From positions 1 to 31,078 of the IMG/VR virus record IMGVR_UViG_2713896898_000008: DNA of 31,078 nt. One strand, written 5' to 3'. The translations under genes and the position numbers were made by a program. Under the pieces are notes generated by a model that was not told the DNA's origin, made no database searches, and was given only the letters and a program-made list of their open reading frames with translations. This DNA is from a virus (taxonomy: Duplodnaviria; Heunggongvirae; Uroviricota; Caudoviricetes). Each line of letters opens with the position of its first letter. Position 1 is the stretch's first letter. This document shows, piece by piece, positions 12,364 through 28,604 of the stretch.

Positions 12364-13524
12364 TTATCTCACATTTAAGTAAACCACGTTTTCCTCTTGT
12401 GCCGTATTTGTGCCATTGCGACTTATAATCGCATCGATTTTGCTCGCGTGCTCAGTGAGATGCCCGGCTGAAAGGTGGGCGTATCTTTGAACCATTTCGA
12501 GAGTTTCCCATCCTCCCATCTCTTTAAGTGCAAGAAGAGAGACACCGGACTGAACCAGCCAGCTTGCCCAGGTATGCCTCAGGTCATGGAAGCGGAAGTT
12601 GCTAATGCCTGCCCGCTTTAACGCTCCCTTCCATGCCTTGTTGCTGTCGGTTCTCATCTTCCTTACCGCTGCTGTTTTTGTTCCGTCGTTTCGGTAGGCA
12701 GGTTTGGTGTGGACAAATACCCATCTCTTATGGAGCCCCTGCTGTTTTCTTAATATCTGGCATGCGGTTTCGTTAAGAGGAACTCCGATCGCATTGCCGG
12801 CTTTTGTTTCATCAGGGGGCATCCATGCCATTTTCTTATCCAGATCGACCTGTGACCACTCAAGGTCTGTAACGTTGGAGCGGCGAAGACCTGTAGTGAT
12901 TGCGAACATGACCACAGGGAAGAAATGAGGAGCAATTTCTGCAAACAGGCGCTTCGATTCCTCCTCTGTAAGCCATCTGATTCGTCCATTCTTAACGCGT
13001 GGTGTTGATATTTTTGGCGCCCTGTCAAGCCATCCCCATTCAACAGCCATATTGAGAATAGCGCGAAGTATTGCCAGATGCCGCATCTTCGTTCCTTTGC
13101 TTGCCAGCTTTGGTTTATACTCCGGCACTGGCTTGCCAAGCCGCAAACACCTGTCCCGGCTCATCTCCCAGTTCAGGCGATGGCGGCGGTTTTCCATCCC
13201 GTCTACCGCCTCCATTATTTTTTCTGTTGTTATGTCAGAGAGAATGGTTTCTCTGAAGTGCAACATCCAGAACGATATAATGCTCTTGTCATCATCAATG
13301 GACTTCTTATCCGATTTCTCACGCAGCCACCGTATGCAGGCTTCCTTGAATAGCTTTTTCGGTGATTCCCCGAGATTTTTTACTCTCCACGCTTCTGCTT
13401 TCAGACGATCGTGAAGTTCTTGCGCTTGCCTTTTGTCCGATGTTTCAAGAGAGCGTCTAACTCTTGATCCATCTGGCGCGACGAAATCGCAGTGCCACGT
13501 GCCACCGCGTAGTTTGATTGACAT
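12364..13524 (-). CDS. int: lambdoid phage integrase (tyrosine recombinase)
   Basis: 386 aa; catalytic motifs TGLRRSN, FHDLRHTWAS, VQRYAHL; strong SD AGGAGG; immediately downstream of an excisionase and Red operon as in lambda, but sequence is not lambda Int. Confidence 0.9.
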   Translation of the reverse strand: MSIKLRGGTWHCDFVAPDGSRVRRSLETSDKRQAQELHDRLKAEAWRVKNLGESPKKLFKEACIRWLREKSDKKSIDDDKSIISFWMLHFRETILSDITTEKIMEAVDGMENRRHRLNWEMSRDRCLRLGKPVPEYKPKLASKGTKMRHLAILRAILNMAVEWGWLDRAPKISTPRVKNGRIRWLTEEESKRLFAEIAPHFFPVVMFAITTGLRRSNVTDLEWSQVDLDKKMAWMPPDETKAGNAIGVPLNETACQILRKQQGLHKRWVFVHTKPAYRNDGTKTAAVRKMRTDSNKAWKGALKRAGISNFRFHDLRHTWASWLVQSGVSLLALKEMGGWETLEMVQRYAHLSAGHLTEHASKIDAIISRNGTNTAQEENVVYLNVR

Positions 13525-14362: not shown

Positions 14363-14460
14363 CCTCCATTAATCCCTGAATTGTTGGTTAATACGCTTGA
14401 GGGTGAATGCGAATAATAAAAAAGGAGCCTGTAGCTCCCTGATGATTTTGCTTTTCATGT

Positions 14461-15310: not shown

Positions 15311-15464
15311 ACAGCCCCCGTTTATTATTTATCACCTCAGCTAGCCGCTGTGCTTTCAGTGGATTTCGGATAACAGAAAGGCCGGGAAATACCCAGCCTT
15401 GCTTTGTAACGGAGTAGACGAAAGTTATCGCGCCTACCCGGATATTATCGTGAGGATGCTTCAT
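15303..15464 (-). CDS. hypothetical small protein (53 aa) coupled between exo and the Dam gene
   Basis: ATG overlaps exo stop; its TGA overlaps the Dam ATG (ATGACTGA); not in ORF track (size cutoff). Confidence 0.3.
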
Positions 15465-16141
15465 CGCCATTGCTCCCCAAATACAAAACCAATTTCAGCC
15501 AGTGCCTCGTCCATTTTTTCGATGAACTCCGGCACCATCTCGTCAAAACTCGTCATGTACTTTTCATCCCGCTCAACCACGACATAATGCAGTCCTTCAC
15601 GTTTCATACGCGGGTCATAGTTGGCAAAGTACCAGGCATCTTTTCGTGTCACCCACATGCTGTACTGCACCTGGGCCATGTAAGCCGACTTTATGGCCTC
15701 GAAACCACCGAGCCGGAACTTCATGAAATCCCGGGAGGTAAACGGGCATTTCAGCTCAAGGCCGTTGCCGTCACTGCATAAACCATCGGGAGAGCAGGCG
15801 GTGCGCATACTTTCGTCGTGATAGATGATCGGGGATTCAGTAACATTCACGCCGGAAGTAAACTCAAACAGGGCTCTGGCGTCGTTCTCGTACTGTTTTC
15901 CCCAGGCCAGTGCTTTAGCGTTAACTTCCGGAGCCACACCGGTGCAAACCTCGGCAAGCAGGGTGTGGAAGTAGGACATTTTCATGTCAGGCCACTTCTT
16001 TCCGGAGCGGGGTTTTGCTATCACGTTGTGAACTTCTGAAGCGGTGATGACGCCGAGCCGTAATTTGTGCCACGCATCATCCCCCTGTTCGACAGCTCTC
16101 ACATCGATCCCGGTACGCTGCTGGATAATGTCCGGTGTCAT
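15461..16141 (-). CDS. exo: lambda exonuclease (Red alpha)
   Basis: 226 aa, near-identical to my recollection of lambda Exo ([35 protein letters not shown]...FVFGEQWR). Confidence 0.95.
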
Positions 16142-17300: not shown

Positions 17301-17507
17301 TTAGTGATTCAGGCCGTTGCCGCGTCCGTCGAGAAAAACTTCCACGAGCAAATCACGGGTATAAGTGCGCTCGATGCCGCGATGCAGATAAAGCCGTCCG
17401 CGTAAATTAGCTGATGCAGTCCAGTTACCATCTTTGTGTTTGACCAGCATTCCTGGCATGACCGCACCTCGATTAACGGTCTGCGTTCCGTAATGTTGAT
17501 GAACCAT
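17301..17507 (-). CDS. hypothetical early protein in the kil/cIII position (68 aa)
   Basis: good SD (CAGGAG) 6 nt upstream of ATG; first convincing ORF downstream of the pL-like promoter; identity not recognised. Confidence 0.5.
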   Translation of the reverse strand: MVHQHYGTQTVNRGAVMPGMLVKHKDGNWTASANLRGRLYLHRGIERTYTRDLLVEVFLDGRGNGLNH

Positions 17508-17774
17508 AAAAACTCCTGCCCGTAAGCTGGGCTGCTGAACAAATAAGGGGTTGCGCAGTATCTGGCGGTGGATGGCCGCCGGTTGTCATAACTAAGCCGC
17601 CTCGTTGAAGCAACTGAGGTATGAAGTGTTGATTTGATTTCAGCTGGTCACACCGACGTTCACGCGTCCGCTTCACCCCTCGCACTCCCCGGAGCCTGCT
17701 GAAATTCAAGCTGCGGATCTAAGCGGTCATCGCAACGGTGAATCAGGTGGTTGCCGTATCGTTGTGTTGTTGCG

Positions 17775-17803
17775 ATATGGTGATAATAGCTATTGCTATT
17801 GGT
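17775..17803 (-). promoter_or_regulatory. pL-like early-left promoter with overlapping operator repeats
   Basis: minus strand -35 TTGATA (17803..17798), 17-nt spacer, -10 TATTAT (17780..17775); operator-like TTGCTATTG motifs (17781-17794, 17811-17819) also present in the cI-cro intergenic region. Confidence 0.6.
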
Positions 17804-17950: not shown

Positions 17951-17980
17951 ACAAAAGAAAACCCGGCACGGTGGCCGGGT
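17951..17980 (-). terminator. rho-independent terminator ending the cI-proximal operon
   Basis: minus strand ACCCGGC-CACCGT-GCCGGGT followed by TTTTCTTTTGT; immediately after stop of the 310-aa gene. Confidence 0.75.
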
Positions 17981-17987
17981 AGCATCA

Positions 17988-18920
17988 CTATTCGATTTTT
18001 TTAACCATGTAGTTACGTCGTGATGTTCCTAATCTTTCATTGTGAATCTCAGAAACGCTTACTACGAGCGATATTCGTTCACCAACTTTATATTTACTTT
18101 GAATTTCTCCTAACATATCAATCGGATAAGAAGCCTTTATTTTTCCAAGCTCGCTTGCAATCTCCAATTTTCCGTACATGGATAAAATAGCAAGTTCGCC
18201 TGATATATGCTCATCCGGTAGCTGAATGACCTTCGTTAAAGCTAAGCGAGCATTCAGTTTTTTTATATCTTCTGAAGAAATTGACACTTGTCTGGTACCA
18301 TCACTTAAAGGTCCAATCCAAGTAAGATCAAAGTTAAGACTATATTTTTCGCACTCATTTATGATGTTTTTTAGGTTAGCTGTTGATTGCGAACCAATTT
18401 CGGCAATTTTAGCCGTGAATGTTTCTTCATCAATGGATGAGAGTAGTGCAAAAATCTCCTTAACAGCATGACTGGATACTGTTTCGATGAGCTCGCAAGA
18501 ACCAGTAGAAAAAGTAACACCTAACTTCGTCGAACCTGGACGCAAGTCTGCCAATCTCATGTCTAATGATTTTTTAACATCAATCGGCACACGACTAGAA
18601 TCTTTCCCAGATCCAAGTCGGTAAACTGCTTTCTGTACAAGGGATGCGAGATTACCTGAAATTACAGATAGAATATCTAACGGAATAGACCCGAAATCGA
18701 CCAAAACACCTTTTAATCTCAACTCCATGAAATCACGTAAAGGATGTTGGTTATCGATTGCACGTTGTCTCTCTCGGAGATCGCTCAGATGGGAGTCAAG
18801 TGATCTAAATATAATGTCATCAGCAAATGATCTCCCCTTATTTTGAGCAAGCAGATCCACATCGCGTTGAATGAACGCAATTCGCTCCTTGAGGGAGTTG
18901 AATGTTTTTTCTTCGCTCAT
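17988..18920 (-). CDS. hypothetical 310-aa protein, partner of nucleotidyltransferase-like gene (rex-position module)
   Basis: start ATG overlaps stop of upstream gene (ATGA); no recognised motifs; located between cI and pL where lambda carries rexA/rexB. Confidence 0.6.
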   Translation of the reverse strand: MSEEKTFNSLKERIAFIQRDVDLLAQNKGRSFADDIIFRSLDSHLSDLRERQRAIDNQHPLRDFMELRLKGVLVDFGSIPLDILSVISGNLASLVQKAVYRLGSGKDSSRVPIDVKKSLDMRLADLRPGSTKLGVTFSTGSCELIETVSSHAVKEIFALLSSIDEETFTAKIAEIGSQSTANLKNIINECEKYSLNFDLTWIGPLSDGTRQVSISSEDIKKLNARLALTKVIQLPDEHISGELAILSMYGKLEIASELGKIKASYPIDMLGEIQSKYKVGERISLVVSVSEIHNERLGTSRRNYMVKKIE

Positions 18921-19390
18921 AACATTACCCTCACGAGGCCTTTAGGATTCTCCTTCCGATCAAAACCAAACCACCCTCTCCAGTAACTTCGCCTTTCACT
19001 ATAATCGATTTCTGGATGATTTTCAGGCAGCAAAAGAACGTCAATGCTGTAGTTTTCTTTAATAAAATCTCTATTTAACAATGAGCTAACCAATGGCATC
19101 AGCGTGTTTGGCAAAGAGTTTAGGGCCAAATAATCGACGACCACGAGTATATCTATGTCATCAGGTTCAGGTTTCTCTGTAGTGAATGAACCATCGATCC
19201 ACACTTCAGAGAAACATAGACACTGCTGATTAACAAGTTTAAATTGCTCAATAAGCTGTATAAAATTACAGTATAGCATACTTCTTCTAACGGATTTTGG
19301 GAAGGTGTCGACACAAAGAGACTTGATGCCATCACTATCCATATCATGAAATCCTGCTGTAAGAAGAGGTGGGAAGCTAGGCTTTTCCAT
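18917..19390 (-). CDS. nucleotidyltransferase-fold protein (Pol-beta/MNT-like), 157 aa
   Basis: motif WIDGSFTTEKPEPDDIDILVVVD fits the G-S-x(9-13)-D-x-D nucleotidyltransferase signature; SD AGGA 7 nt upstream; directly downstream of cI. Confidence 0.55.
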   Translation of the reverse strand: MEKPSFPPLLTAGFHDMDSDGIKSLCVDTFPKSVRRSMLYCNFIQLIEQFKLVNQQCLCFSEVWIDGSFTTEKPEPDDIDILVVVDYLALNSLPNTLMPLVSSLLNRDFIKENYSIDVLLLPENHPEIDYSERRSYWRGWFGFDRKENPKGLVRVML

Positions 19391-19471: not shown

Positions 19472-20164
19472 TTAACCATGCTTCCTGTACGTCTGCGGCA
19501 TGCTCCCAATAACCTTACCGAAGATGAACACCCGGTTCATCTCGTCTTTCTCGATCGGGTCCCACGGTGAGTAGCTCTTGTTATCAGAGATAACCAGTAG
19601 CTTATCTTTCATCATTTGCAGGCGCTTTACATGGGCTGTGTCGTCGTACAGAAACGCATAGATACCATCACCGTCGAAAGATTTAACCGTGATATCAACG
19701 AACAGAAGATCACCTGGTTCGATCGTTCCTGACATGCTGTCACCGCGTACGTTAATGATGCGGATATTTTCTGCCTTCCTACCATCGAACATGTGACGAG
19801 CATCGTCAAACGAGTACTCAACCGAGCGTAGAACTTCTACAAACTCACGGTTGATGACACCCGGCCCGGCACTGACTTCTATATCAAGAACGTCAATCTT
19901 GAAGTATTTGGAATGGTTGACAGCAGGCTTCCCTGATTGTTGACCGTCATTTCTCATCGGGCCTATGCCTGATGAGAGCCACTCTGTTCGAACACCCAAT
20001 GCATTAGCTATTTCAACAATTTTTGTTGAGCCGCGCGCGTTGCCGCTTGTCAGTCTCCAGATTGTGGGTTGAGCTACGCCAGACGCCTTTGCAAGAGCGC
20101 CTTGAGACATTCCAGATTGTTCCATCGCTAGGTTTAAGCGATCAGCAAGAGTTTCTTTTTTCAT
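19472..20164 (-). CDS. cI: CI-like prophage repressor (HTH plus S24 LexA-like autopeptidase domain)
   Basis: N-terminal XRE-type HTH (LADRLNLAMEQSGMSQGALAKASGVAQPTIWRL); C-terminal GDSM...K peptidase S24 motif; ORF-track 19472..20200 trimmed to ATG 20164, which lies just downstream of a TTGACC/TATAAA promoter (leaderless, as for lambda pRM). Confidence 0.85.
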   Translation of the reverse strand: MKKETLADRLNLAMEQSGMSQGALAKASGVAQPTIWRLTSGNARGSTKIVEIANALGVRTEWLSSGIGPMRNDGQQSGKPAVNHSKYFKIDVLDIEVSAGPGVINREFVEVLRSVEYSFDDARHMFDGRKAENIRIINVRGDSMSGTIEPGDLLFVDITVKSFDGDGIYAFLYDDTAHVKRLQMMKDKLLVISDNKSYSPWDPIEKDEMNRVFIFGKVIGSMPQTYRKHG

Positions 20165-20274
20165 AAGTTTTAATTTATACGCTTGCGTATTGATGGTCAA
20201 AACACGTTTTGCTATTGCTTAGGTTAATACGTATTGCTATTATTCCTTCATTGCAATACCAATAGGAATTGATA
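20165..20274. promoter_or_regulatory. divergent pRM/pR-like promoters and operator repeats (immunity switch)
   Basis: minus strand -35 TTGACC (20200..20195) and -10 TATAAA (20179..20174); plus strand -35 TTGCTT (20215-20220), 17-nt spacer, -10 TATTAT (20238-20243); repeated TTGCTATTG-type motifs shared with the pL region. Confidence 0.6.
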
Positions 20275-23560: not shown

Positions 23561-23922
23561 ATTTAACACCTAAAAACTGTTTAAAGTCAGTATGATAGAG
23601 CGATTTCTGGAACCTGTTGAGTGATGGTGATCACATTATGAGAATGAATGACTGCGGTTGACCGCCACCATTCACTGGGGCTAATTCTTTGTGTTGCCGC
23701 AAAATCGGCACACGGGATTGGCGTCCCGGAACACTACTCAACGCATACCGCGTTAAGCAGTTTTTTATGCGCTAAGCGCGGCTACGCCCAAATTATGGTG
23801 GGCTGTGTGAGGGCTTCTTCGGAAGCGCCGGGTTTGTGTAGCCGGTTACGCCAACCTTGCACAGTTCACTACCTGTCGATTGGCGTCGTTGGTGGTGATT
23901 GTTAACCTGATGAGGTGATACT

Positions 23923-24240
23923 ATGACTACTCAATTAGCATTCCACAAAACGACGTTTACCCCGATTTGCCACAACAACAGAATTTGGCTTACTGCCACT
24001 GAAGTTGGTTTAGCAATGGAATATGCGGACGATAACGCAGCTAAGCGCATTTACTCTCGTCACTCAGATGAATTTACAGACATGATGATAGGAGGGGTCA
24101 AAGTGACCACCCTCGTGGAATGCAGGCGTCTCGAGTATTTAGCCTTCGGGGAGACCAACGGATCGTCATGTTCGCACGAACTCCTGTGGTCAAAGAGTTC
24201 CCCCGCTGGGTTCTGAATATTCTCGATCGAGAAGTTCAAT
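23923..24240 (+). pseudogene. Bro-N-like antirepressor-domain gene with an apparent -1 frameshift at a C-run (~24110-24112)
   Basis: frame 1 reads ...DEFTDMMIGGVKVTT then degenerates; the adjacent frame continues PRGMQASRVFSLRG...MFARTPVVKEFPRWVLNILDREVQ*, a typical Bro-N C-terminus. Confidence 0.45.
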
Positions 24241-24482: not shown

Positions 24483-26009
24483 ATGAAAAAAGCCATAGCA
24501 TATATGCGATTTTCATCACCAAGCCAGATGTCTGGTGATTCATTAAACCGTCAGAGAAGGCTTATTACTGAATGGCTAAAGGTAAATAGTGATTATTACC
24601 TTGATACCGTAACGTATGAAGATTTGGGGTTAAGCGCATTCAATGGAAAGCATGCACAGTCAGGAGCTTTTTCGGAATTTTTAGATGCCATAGAGCATGG
24701 CTGTATATTGCCAGGAACTACATTGCTAGTTGAAAGTCTGGACAGACTTTCAAGAGAAAAAGTCGGTGAGGCGATTGAACGCCTGAAACTGATTTTAAAT
24801 CATGGTATTGATGTTATAACTCTGTGCGATAATACAACTTATAATATTGATTCTTTAAATGAACCATATTCATTAATAAAAGCAATACTTATAGCTCAAA
24901 GAGCCAATGAAGAAAGCGAGATAAAGTCAAGCCGAGTTAAATTATCATGGAAGAAAAAAAGACAAGATGCAATGGAGTCAGGTACGATTATGACGGCATC
25001 TTGCCCGAGATGGCTTTCATTAGATGAAAAAAGAACGTCGTTTGTCTTAGACCCTGACAGGGTGAAAACGATTGAGCTGATTTTTAAACTAAGGATGGAA
25101 AGACGCTCTTTGAATGCAATTGCTAAGTATTTAAATGATCATGCTATAAAGAATTTCTCAGGAAAAGAAAGTGCATGGGGGCCTTCTGTAATTGAAAAAT
25201 TATTAGCTAATAAAGCGCTGATAGGTATATGCGTACCTTCATATCGTGCAAGAGGGAAGGGAATAATTGAAATCGCTGACTATTATCCCAGAGTGATATC
25301 AGATGATTTGTTTTACTCTGTGCAGGAAATTCGGCTGGCACCTTTTGGTATTAGCAATAGTAGCAAGAATCCTATGTTGATAAATCTACTGCGAACAGTT
25401 ATGAAGTGCGGCGCTTGTGGTAATACTATGATTGTTAATGCAGTATCAGGAAGCTTGCACGGCTATTATGTTTGCCCGATGAGAAGATTGCATCGATGTA
25501 ACAGGCCATCAATAAGAAGAGATTTGGTTGACTATAATATAGTTAATGAATTGCTTTTTAATTGTAGTAAAATCCAACCAGTTGAAAATAAGAAAGATGT
25601 TAATGAAACTCTGGAATTGAAAGTTATTGAACTTCAGATGAAAATTAATAATTTAATTGTTGCATTATCTGTTGCACCTGAAGTTACCGCTATAGCAGAA
25701 AAAATTAGAGTATTAGATAAAGAATTGCGAAGGGTTTCTATATCATTAAAAACTTTGAAGAGTAAAGGTGTAAGTACACTTGGTGATTTCCATGACATTG
25801 ATTTAACCAGTAAAAATGGGCGGGAATTATGTCGTACACTTGCTTATAAAACATTCGAAAAAATTATAATAAACACAGATAACAAAACATGTGATATCTA
25901 TTTTATGAATGGTATTGTTTTTAAACACTATCCTTTGATGAAAATAATATCTGCCCAACAGGCGATAAGTACTCTCAGGTATATGATTGATGGGGAAGTT
26001 TATTTTTAA
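24483..26009 (+). CDS. large serine recombinase (resolvase-domain plus recombinase and zinc-ribbon regions)
   Basis: 508 aa; N-terminal AIAYMRFSSPSQ...SLNRQ catalytic-serine resolvase motif; Cys cluster CGACGN...C; AT-rich codon usage unlike the flanking nin genes. Confidence 0.8.
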   Translation: MKKAIAYMRFSSPSQMSGDSLNRQRRLITEWLKVNSDYYLDTVTYEDLGLSAFNGKHAQSGAFSEFLDAIEHGCILPGTTLLVESLDRLSREKVGEAIERLKLILNHGIDVITLCDNTTYNIDSLNEPYSLIKAILIAQRANEESEIKSSRVKLSWKKKRQDAMESGTIMTASCPRWLSLDEKRTSFVLDPDRVKTIELIFKLRMERRSLNAIAKYLNDHAIKNFSGKESAWGPSVIEKLLANKALIGICVPSYRARGKGIIEIADYYPRVISDDLFYSVQEIRLAPFGISNSSKNPMLINLLRTVMKCGACGNTMIVNAVSGSLHGYYVCPMRRLHRCNRPSIRRDLVDYNIVNELLFNCSKIQPVENKKDVNETLELKVIELQMKINNLIVALSVAPEVTAIAEKIRVLDKELRRVSISLKTLKSKGVSTLGDFHDIDLTSKNGRELCRTLAYKTFEKIIINTDNKTCDIYFMNGIVFKHYPLMKIISAQQAISTLRYMIDGEVYF

Positions 26010-28175: not shown

Positions 28176-28259
28176 AGCTGGGGATAACGATGGGTTTATA
28201 CCCTTTTATTGATTTTTGCTGGCAATTGGTGTGCTGGGCTGATTTTGTGGAGAAAGTTG

Positions 28260-28604
28260 ATGCGTGATATGTATGAAGTATTGGACCGCTGGGGAGCATG
28301 GGCTGCAGCAGACAACAGTGGTGTGGACTGGCAGCCGGTAGCAGCAGGCTTCAAGGGGCTTTTACCTCATGGCAAAAAGTCACGGATTCAGTGTGATGAT
28401 GACGAAGGCATTATGATAGACAGTTGTGTGGCTCGGTTGAGAAGGTATAAACCAGAGGAATATGAGCTCATCATAGCCCACTTTGTTATTGGTATCTCAT
28501 TACGCACTATTGCCAAAAAGAGAAGGTGCTCTGATGGCACTATTAGGAAGGAGTTGCAAACCGCAATCGGTTTTATAGAGGGGGTTGTAAGTATACTTGT
28601 GTAA
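28260..28604 (+). CDS. Q: late-gene antiterminator Q (phage 82 / QuuD-like)
   Basis: MRDMYEVLDRWGAWAA...FKGLLPHGKKSRIQCDDDEG...RRCSDGTIRKELQTAIGFIEG resembles Q82-type antiterminators; start at ATG 28260 with SD GGAG (track ORF 28209..28604). Confidence 0.7.
   Translation: MRDMYEVLDRWGAWAAADNSGVDWQPVAAGFKGLLPHGKKSRIQCDDDEGIMIDSCVARLRRYKPEEYELIIAHFVIGISLRTIAKKRRCSDGTIRKELQTAIGFIEGVVSILV

Follow-up and report, generated by a model that had tools for sequence, protein, structure and literature searches.

A conserved RNA with a predicted two-stem-loop fold in the early-left leader of N-less lambdoid coliphages: a candidate antiterminator analogous to put

What could stand in for N between the pL promoter and the early-left genes of a lambda-like phage in which no N gene is apparent? 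The question is raised by the early-left leader of a prophage in a 31,078-nt stretch of viral DNA, the whole of which was analysed and is referred to here as the window. Put is regarded as a rarity of HK022-like phages; its read-through of terminators occurs in cis, without phage proteins, and is blocked by mutations affecting the zinc-binding domain of rpoC, such as Y75N. To our knowledge, it is the only well-characterised RNA that confers protein-free terminator resistance on bacterial RNA polymerase, and the put antiterminator RNAs of HK022 and HK639 were reportedly described by King et al. in 1996 and 2011. The put antiterminator RNA was later studied by cryo-EM (Hwang et al. 2022; PMC9378689), and a 2025 paper raises, as speculation only, a use of put by lambdoid phages without N (PMC12315714). 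A first-pass annotation of the window proposed that this leader lacks a convincing N gene and carries a candidate antitermination element, either RNA-based (put-like) or divergent.

A lambda-like (lambdoid) prophage fills the window. Its left operon lies on the minus strand and includes kil, gam, bet, exo (15461-16141), dam and xis; int (12364-13524) and cI (19472-20200) lie on the same strand. The rightward genes follow on the plus strand in the order cro, a YdaT/CII-like gene, O, P, ren, ninB, rusA and a gene for a Q-like antiterminator (28209-28604). Two moron genes lie between cI and a strong terminator at 17961-17980, which separates them from the pL-like promoter. This gene pair occupies the rexAB position (17988-19390, minus strand), encodes a DUF6932/nucleotidyltransferase-like protein of 157 aa and a 310-aa phrog_6603 protein, and is possibly a prophage-expressed defence moron. 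A search of the whole window with Rfam gave a single real match, a C4 antisense RNA (70 bits; 23791-23876, plus strand) in the nin region between ren and ninB. Its neighbours are short Ant-like ORFs and a serine recombinase/integrase-like gene (ORFs at 23648-23905, 23923-24216 and 24483-26009), and the region looks like a P1/P7-type immunity (c4/ant) module within the lambda-like prophage.

The pL-like sigma-70 promoter (17811-17783, minus strand) consists of a -35 element TTGATA (17811-17806), a 17-nt spacer and a -10 element TATTAT (17788-17783). It matches the consensus at 10 of 12 positions in a promoter scan and is embedded in OL operator repeats, and transcription from it would start at about 17776. 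The first 19 nt of the transcript, as read from the sequence, form a 5'-terminal hairpin, AUCG[CAACAACACAA]CGAU (17758-17776, minus strand), which is common to immunity types A and B; the pL transcripts of phi80 and HK639 have a similar 5' start, AUCGA[AACGAAACA]UCGAU. The CA-rich loop of this hairpin resembles the C/A-rich sequences bound by GcvB-type sRNAs. At least three immunity types differ in the operator region, and the leader downstream of it is constant.

A leader of about 270 nt without an N gene separates this promoter from kil, the first gene of the left operon (17301-17507, minus strand; 68 aa), which encodes a KilR-type FtsZ inhibitor and is followed by gam, bet and exo. The first-pass annotation had picked out 17301-17507 as the first ORF with a good ribosome-binding site, and this stands: an AGGAG Shine-Dalgarno sequence lies at 17513-17517, and kil is also the first ORF with family support, matching phrog_294 over its full length (E=1e-36, residues 1-68) and NF008465 with E=2.6e-16 and 59 bits, which is under the curated cut-off of 92. 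Thousands of E. coli genomes and 16 isolated phages, among them PhiR30_1, 4A7, Lambda_4C10 and Perceval, contain DNA nearly identical to the window; the annotation of the two near-identical records examined, from phage and RefSeq entries, includes no N gene. The absence of a convincing N gene was thus correctly recognised from the sequence.

The leader is non-coding and composite, being made up of two RNA elements, a 104-nt module (17634-17737, minus strand) and a structured 3' element (17508-17625, minus strand). The module, a candidate cis-acting antiterminator RNA, lies about 40-140 nt after the inferred pL start. It is present at full length with at least 90% identity (mostly at least 95%) in 2210 of 5426 complete E. 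coli genomes (41%), in none of which it is annotated. It is joined to at least three operator/promoter types, two of which share the transcript from its first base, the third joining at about 17743. The module is far more conserved than the synonymous sites of the neighbouring kil gene; in one subgroup of relatives, dozens of kil sites differ, compared with only 2 of about 240 leader positions. A covariance model of the module (R2) scores 131 bits on a single copy in the window, and neither blastn-short nor R2 with filters off found a second copy of the module or leader there, the pR operon included. No Rfam family matches the leader at the gathering threshold, and at E<=10 only chance-level eukaryotic families appear; among the papers searched, none contained the module or 3'-element sequences.

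A divergent homologue was first found in a profile search of fetched loci, in locus L391 (nhmmer E=1e-18). This second type is known from 15 viral loci, collected with an exact-word scan, and from one metagenome contig, which carries a variant of it; the other 107 metagenome matches were chance matches. No further type was found beyond type 1 (that of the window), type 2 and this one variant when about 480 fetched loci, including 43 Kil loci of other Enterobacteriaceae, were searched with nhmmer and R2 and the metagenomes were scanned for exact words, and no module was found beside the Kil genes of these 43 other enterobacterial species.

Comparison of the two types points to the structure of the module. 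Both are 104 nt long, and nearly all of their approximately 18 differences fall in the stems of two helices, P1 (17689-17716) and P2 (17652-17671), or in the P2 loop. From type 1 to type 2, an A-U pair becomes C-G and a G-C pair becomes A-U in P1, whose internal mismatch position is freely variable. In P2, an A-U pair becomes G-C, G.U alternates with A-U, G.G alternates with G-C or U.G, and the loop differs. Three pairs in P1 and P2 together are doubly compensated. The segment GACCGCUUAGA, the P1 loop, the invariant G-rich linker GGGGAGUGCGAGGGGUG (17674-17690) and GUGUGACCAGCUGAAA are nearly unchanged between types. The covariation score for P1/P2 is 0.19, compared with 0.105 in shuffles (0 of 500) and no more than 0.05 in slid controls, a score that rests on one type-1/type-2 split. 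RNAalifold recovers P1 and P2 unaided, nested in two adjacent stem-loops, SL-I (17681-17725) and SL-II (17642-17680), whose outer helices are invariant, and single-sequence minimum free energy (MFE) folds of three variants from both types show the same two-stem-loop architecture. The folding energies are no better than those of shuffled sequences (z of -0.05 to -1.6 for the module). The first-pass description of the interval as GC-rich with several potential stems is true and, taken alone, uninformative, the folding z being only -0.8 for the whole leader (-0.4 and -1.6 for its halves). HK022 putL itself reaches a z of only -0.7, showing that folding energy against shuffles is uninformative even for a genuine put.

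The surroundings of the module point to its possible function. Put sites were located with a covariance model (R1) built from 13 putL sequences, with put sites taken from HK022, HK639 and IMG/VR and with helices that follow the cryo-EM description in PMC9378689; R1 found every control, scoring 88-103 bits on putL and 37-46 bits on putR. Type-2 modules always lie in pL leaders that start like those of phi80 and HK639 (CCAUCGAAACGAAACAUCGACAGCUGAGCGAAGUUAGCCAGCGGCG...). When 165 copies of the leader start AGCTGAGCGAAGTTAGCCAGCG were sorted by the sequence that follows, about 70 continued into put, 13 into a type-2 module and about 80 into a boxA-like sequence of the phi80 type. HK639, which carries putL, and loci L391 and L403, which carry the module, have identical flanks around the exchanged cassette (...GAAGTGGAG / cassette / ...TTACCAGCAGCTCTTTGCGAGGGGCTGACGGTAAAC). 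A further locus, L304, mirrors the window: it carries putL (95.6 bits) followed after 12 nt by the 3' element, and its junction AATCAAAC...CATACTTCAGT is homologous to AATCAAATCAACACTTCATACCTCAGT in the window. These flank comparisons show that the module is interchangeable with putL in two leader backgrounds, and such a flank-to-flank swap points to a function tied to transcription elongation.

The same searches brought to light other put-type RNAs. Unannotated putL-type RNAs are present in the Enterobacter phage CobraSix (L007, 1630-1705; 94.9 bits) and the Salmonella phage S9-5 (L008, 913-988; 93.7 bits). This widens the range of put antitermination to phages of Enterobacter and to P22-like (Lederbergvirus) phages of Salmonella. 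A single put is present in each of the stretches fetched for HK639, CobraSix, S9-5 and L304; thus, putR is not universal. One locus, L452, is a hybrid in which a 5' part resembling put stem I is combined with a perfect TGCTCTTTAACAA, the rrn boxA.

Terminators lie downstream of the module in both types. In type-2 loci, none of which contains put, one to three canonical intrinsic terminators occur 0.7-1.8 kb downstream and are followed by the 3' element and the kil/gam/recombination genes; the tL1-type terminator has the sequence AAGCCGCCTAACCAGCGGCTTTTTT. The ORFs between module and terminator are heterogeneous morons (TerB-like, TciB-like and unassigned), no antiterminator or N-like family was found among them, and no homologue of phi80 N or Nun was found in any module locus. 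Upstream of the canonical terminators of type-2 phages, no conserved candidate other than the module is found. In type-1 loci, a strong terminator lies about 3.3 kb downstream, before xis-int, in 60 of the 62 loci with enough downstream sequence. In the window, where no terminator separates the module from kil-gam-bet-exo, this is the intrinsic terminator AGGGAGCUACAGGCUCCUU + UUUUAUUAUU (14422-14440, minus strand), which a terminator scan placed 3.3 kb beyond the module, after the recombination/dam genes and ahead of xis-int; it could simply be the operon end. This layout, with a leader RNA upstream of terminators, is the same as that in put phages.

Since the module sits in the slot where related phages carry put, RNA-based terminator read-through is proposed. 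We favour, at a confidence close to even though short of it, the reading that the module is a cis-acting antiterminator RNA that would be analogous to put and unrelated to it. The module would be transcribed about 40 nt after the pL start and would fold as two adjacent stem-loops joined by invariant G-rich single-stranded segments. The nascent RNA would then stay on the RNA polymerase that made it, and a polymerase bearing it would resist downstream terminators, replacing N/nutL. In the window phage, the terminator to be overcome would be the conserved one at 14422-14440 before xis-int, and in type-2 relatives it would be those of the tL1 type before kil-gam-bet-exo. The conservation of the module, its compensated structure, the cassette swap with putL, the downstream terminators and the absence of put and N are observations. 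We infer from sequence its antitermination activity and its mechanism on RNA polymerase. The idea in the first-pass annotation that RNA-based antitermination takes the place of N has in this way gained considerable comparative support from a conserved cassette that swaps with putL, and its function is what we infer.

The analogy can be stated precisely. Like the put sites of HK022 and HK639, the module is encoded on the transcribed strand of the pL leader in a lambdoid phage without N, soon after the promoter and with terminators downstream; it too is predicted to fold as two adjacent stem-loops with internal loops, and it takes the same slot as putL in homologous leaders. However, it has no sequence or covariance-model similarity to put, it is longer (about 84-104 nt, compared with about 72 nt for put), its invariant G-rich linker is absent from put, no putR-like second copy exists in the window, and its activity would be assigned by analogy. 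With lambda N/nutL, it has in common its location, after pL and ahead of the early-left genes, and its presumed task. However, lambda nutL is made up of boxA and boxB, and the module phage has no N gene, no boxA and no counterpart of nutR.

An alternative, which we consider unlikely but by no means negligible, is that the leader exerts post-transcriptional or attenuation control over the toxic kil gene and the early-left genes and is not an antiterminator. Variants of this explanation include a Rho-dependent attenuator, control of mRNA stability or processing, translational control, and a source or sponge of sRNA. For the 3' element, such a role is plausible. This element, which is widespread and unannotated, begins with H1, a long irregular hairpin (17586-17624, minus strand) with the base UCAUA/UAUGA and an invariant AUG at 17587-17589. 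It is followed by H2 (17564-17580, minus strand), GGCGG-CCAUCCA-CCGCC, whose loop CYAUCCA is near-invariant among 129 distinct copies, and then by a variable spacer and H4 (together 17508-17563, minus strand). H4, GCCC-agcuuac-GGGC (17518-17532), is seen in the MFE fold and abuts the kil Shine-Dalgarno sequence at 17513-17517; its counterpart in other phages has a different sequence, GCGC/GCGC or GCC/GGC, and lies just before the Shine-Dalgarno sequence of the next gene. In the alignment of H1 (A6), pairing holds in 97% of cells, double changes occur at 7 pairs and some pairs take as many as 6 pair types; the covariation score is 0.38, whereas shuffles give 0.126 (0 of 500) and slid controls 0.04-0.07. 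A small ORF in the element, MTTGGHPPP, was rejected as a gene: although its AUG is invariant, the encoded peptide lacks conservation, since indels shift H2 into each of the three frames.

The 3' element is common to phi80, HK225, HK639, CobraSix, S9-5 and prophages of Enterobacter, Citrobacter, Klebsiella and other genera (L004, 2498-2610; L005, 3000-3135; L006, L007 and L008, each 2501-2640; and many IMG/VR and GTDB loci). Among the 129 distinct copies, 97 directly follow a tL1-type intrinsic terminator, the T-run of which is followed by CATACC. In phi80, the element comes after the terminator that follows the N-position gene, and in HK639, two genes separate putL from it; the window family is unusual in that the element adjoins the module directly, without an intervening terminator. 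This H1/H2 post-terminator element is a separate, widespread RNA that is well supported by covariation, and it merits its own study.

For the leader as a whole, control of kil would be consistent with its approximately 270 untranslated nucleotides, parts of which, at the 5' end and at 17626-17650, are rich in C and poor in G, with the position of H4 against the kil Shine-Dalgarno sequence, and with the sequestering of an AUG by H1. Rho reportedly silences kilR of the Rac prophage, as described by Cardinale et al. in 2008. The 5' UTR of Rac kilR also has its own sRNA, KilS (PMC8175672), which in E. coli K-12 is a RefSeq sRNA feature (L248, 2906-3003). Like the leader, KilS is non-coding RNA situated directly before the gene of a KilR-type division inhibitor. 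However, it is a separate sRNA that has a promoter and a terminator of its own, sequence comparison found no homology between it and the leader, and the leader has no Rfam match. Anti-sRNAs of the AgvB/AsxR type were also considered and set aside, as they sit downstream of PR' and not at pL. The location of the type-2 modules argues further against this alternative: they lie 0.7-1.8 kb, with genes and terminators between, away from kil, and the module is therefore not kil-specific, while the putL swap points to elongation.

It is also conceivable, if rather improbable, that the module is a nut-like recruitment site that would act together with a host Nus-type complex or with a phage protein whose gene lies elsewhere in the genome. 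In phi80 (L005, 2290-2345) and about 80 IMG/VR loci, a pL-leader hairpin is followed by the boxA-like sequence TGCTTTTTAACAA, identical to the rrn boxA in 12 of 13 positions. This sequence occupies the same slot as the module; therefore, protein-dependent cassettes do use it. The phi80 leader resembles that of type-2 modules in the first ~55 nt of the pL transcript and in the downstream terminator with the 3' element. However, TGCTTTTTAACAA, a leader of about 400 nt and an N-position gene are features of phi80, and none of them is found in module phages. The phi80 'N' gene is a poor marker, because homologues were found in only 5 of 84 phi80-type loci. The invariant single-stranded segments of the module could bind a protein, and the search for one covered part of each phage genome. 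However, the module has no constant neighbour gene, being accompanied by kil in type 1 and by unrelated morons in type 2, and module loci contain no N, phi80-N or Nun homologue, in agreement with the near-identical records. A boxA (YGCTCTTTA) was absent, allowing 1 mismatch, from 17508-17776 and from the vicinity of pR, the right operon holds no second site, and inspection of the leader revealed no boxB-like hairpin, including none with the GNRA-like pentaloop of lambda nutL boxB.

A third explanation is that an arginine-rich ORF in the leader is translated, either as a short N-like protein or as an N-terminal extension of Kil, which we regard as very improbable. The 78-aa ORF with a TTG start reported in the first-pass annotation (17473-17709, minus strand) does exist, with its GVKRTRERR stretch, and KRTRERR is like an arginine-rich motif. 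The ORF was said to lack a Shine-Dalgarno sequence. This is correct for the TTG at 17709 and incorrect for an in-frame GTG at 17676, for which a ribosome-binding site is conceivable because GGGGAG (17690-17685) lies 8 nt upstream. The product would be 67-78 aa in the window. In 72 of 88 distinct relatives, the GTG ORF is 125 aa long and fused in frame to kil. Several phage GenBank records give the name 'Kil' to the leader ORF or its long version (17301-17676, minus strand); these are probably misannotations, and the 68-aa kil ORF alone fully covers the Kil family profile. In the remaining 16 relatives (18%), however, the GTG ORF is shortened to 20, 29, 39, 67, 68 or 80 aa, including in the plaque-forming isolated phage PhiR30_1 (68 aa), the form in the window being 67 aa. 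Among 88-89 distinct leader copies from IMG/VR, the variable sites of the ORF are spread evenly over codon positions 1, 2 and 3, in contrast to those of kil, which fall overwhelmingly on position 3. In the type-2 homologue, the frame is closed, reading GTG-TAA and TTG...TGA, and the 3' half of the ORF crosses H1 and H2, a region read in any of the three frames in related phages. No Pfam, NCBIfam or PHROG family was matched by the ORF, whose arginine codons, CGG ACG CGU GAA CGU CGG, are the two strands of hairpin P2. We judge the ORF from these comparisons to be non-coding. A degenerate N gene is likewise not what is found, given an ORF that is not conserved as coding and has stops in its type-2 homologue, and the lack of a boxA or nutR-like copy.

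That the leader holds a divergent member of the put family itself, as its putL-like position and strand, the missing N gene and the two-stem-loop architecture might suggest, has hardly any probability left, since R1 is silent in 17508-17790 at E<=10 with filters off and inspection by eye revealed neither of the put hallmark motifs, CGAACGGC and GGYYMAGGAWGA, there. The best R1 match in the window reaches 10 bits and lies inside bet, and R1 found no match in L001 and L002, which carry the same leader. The put-like reading in the sense of homology has therefore fallen away.

The reading of the module as an antiterminator analogous to put is directly testable, because natural swaps exist in which putL and the module stand in identical flanks. 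It is possible, and we suggest it with some reserve, that the module founds a second class of self-sufficient antiterminator RNAs, one that is not homologous to put, would act in cis on E. coli polymerase, would be carried by prophages of about 40% of complete E. coli genomes and could be exchanged as a cassette for put or for boxA/N-type sites. If this is true, RNA-only antitermination would have arisen more than once, and structural studies of the elongation complex would gain a new natural ligand in the module. The expression of the early-left genes in a very common group of N-less lambdoid coliphages and prophages (4A7, Lambda_4C10, Perceval and the PhiR series) would also be explained.
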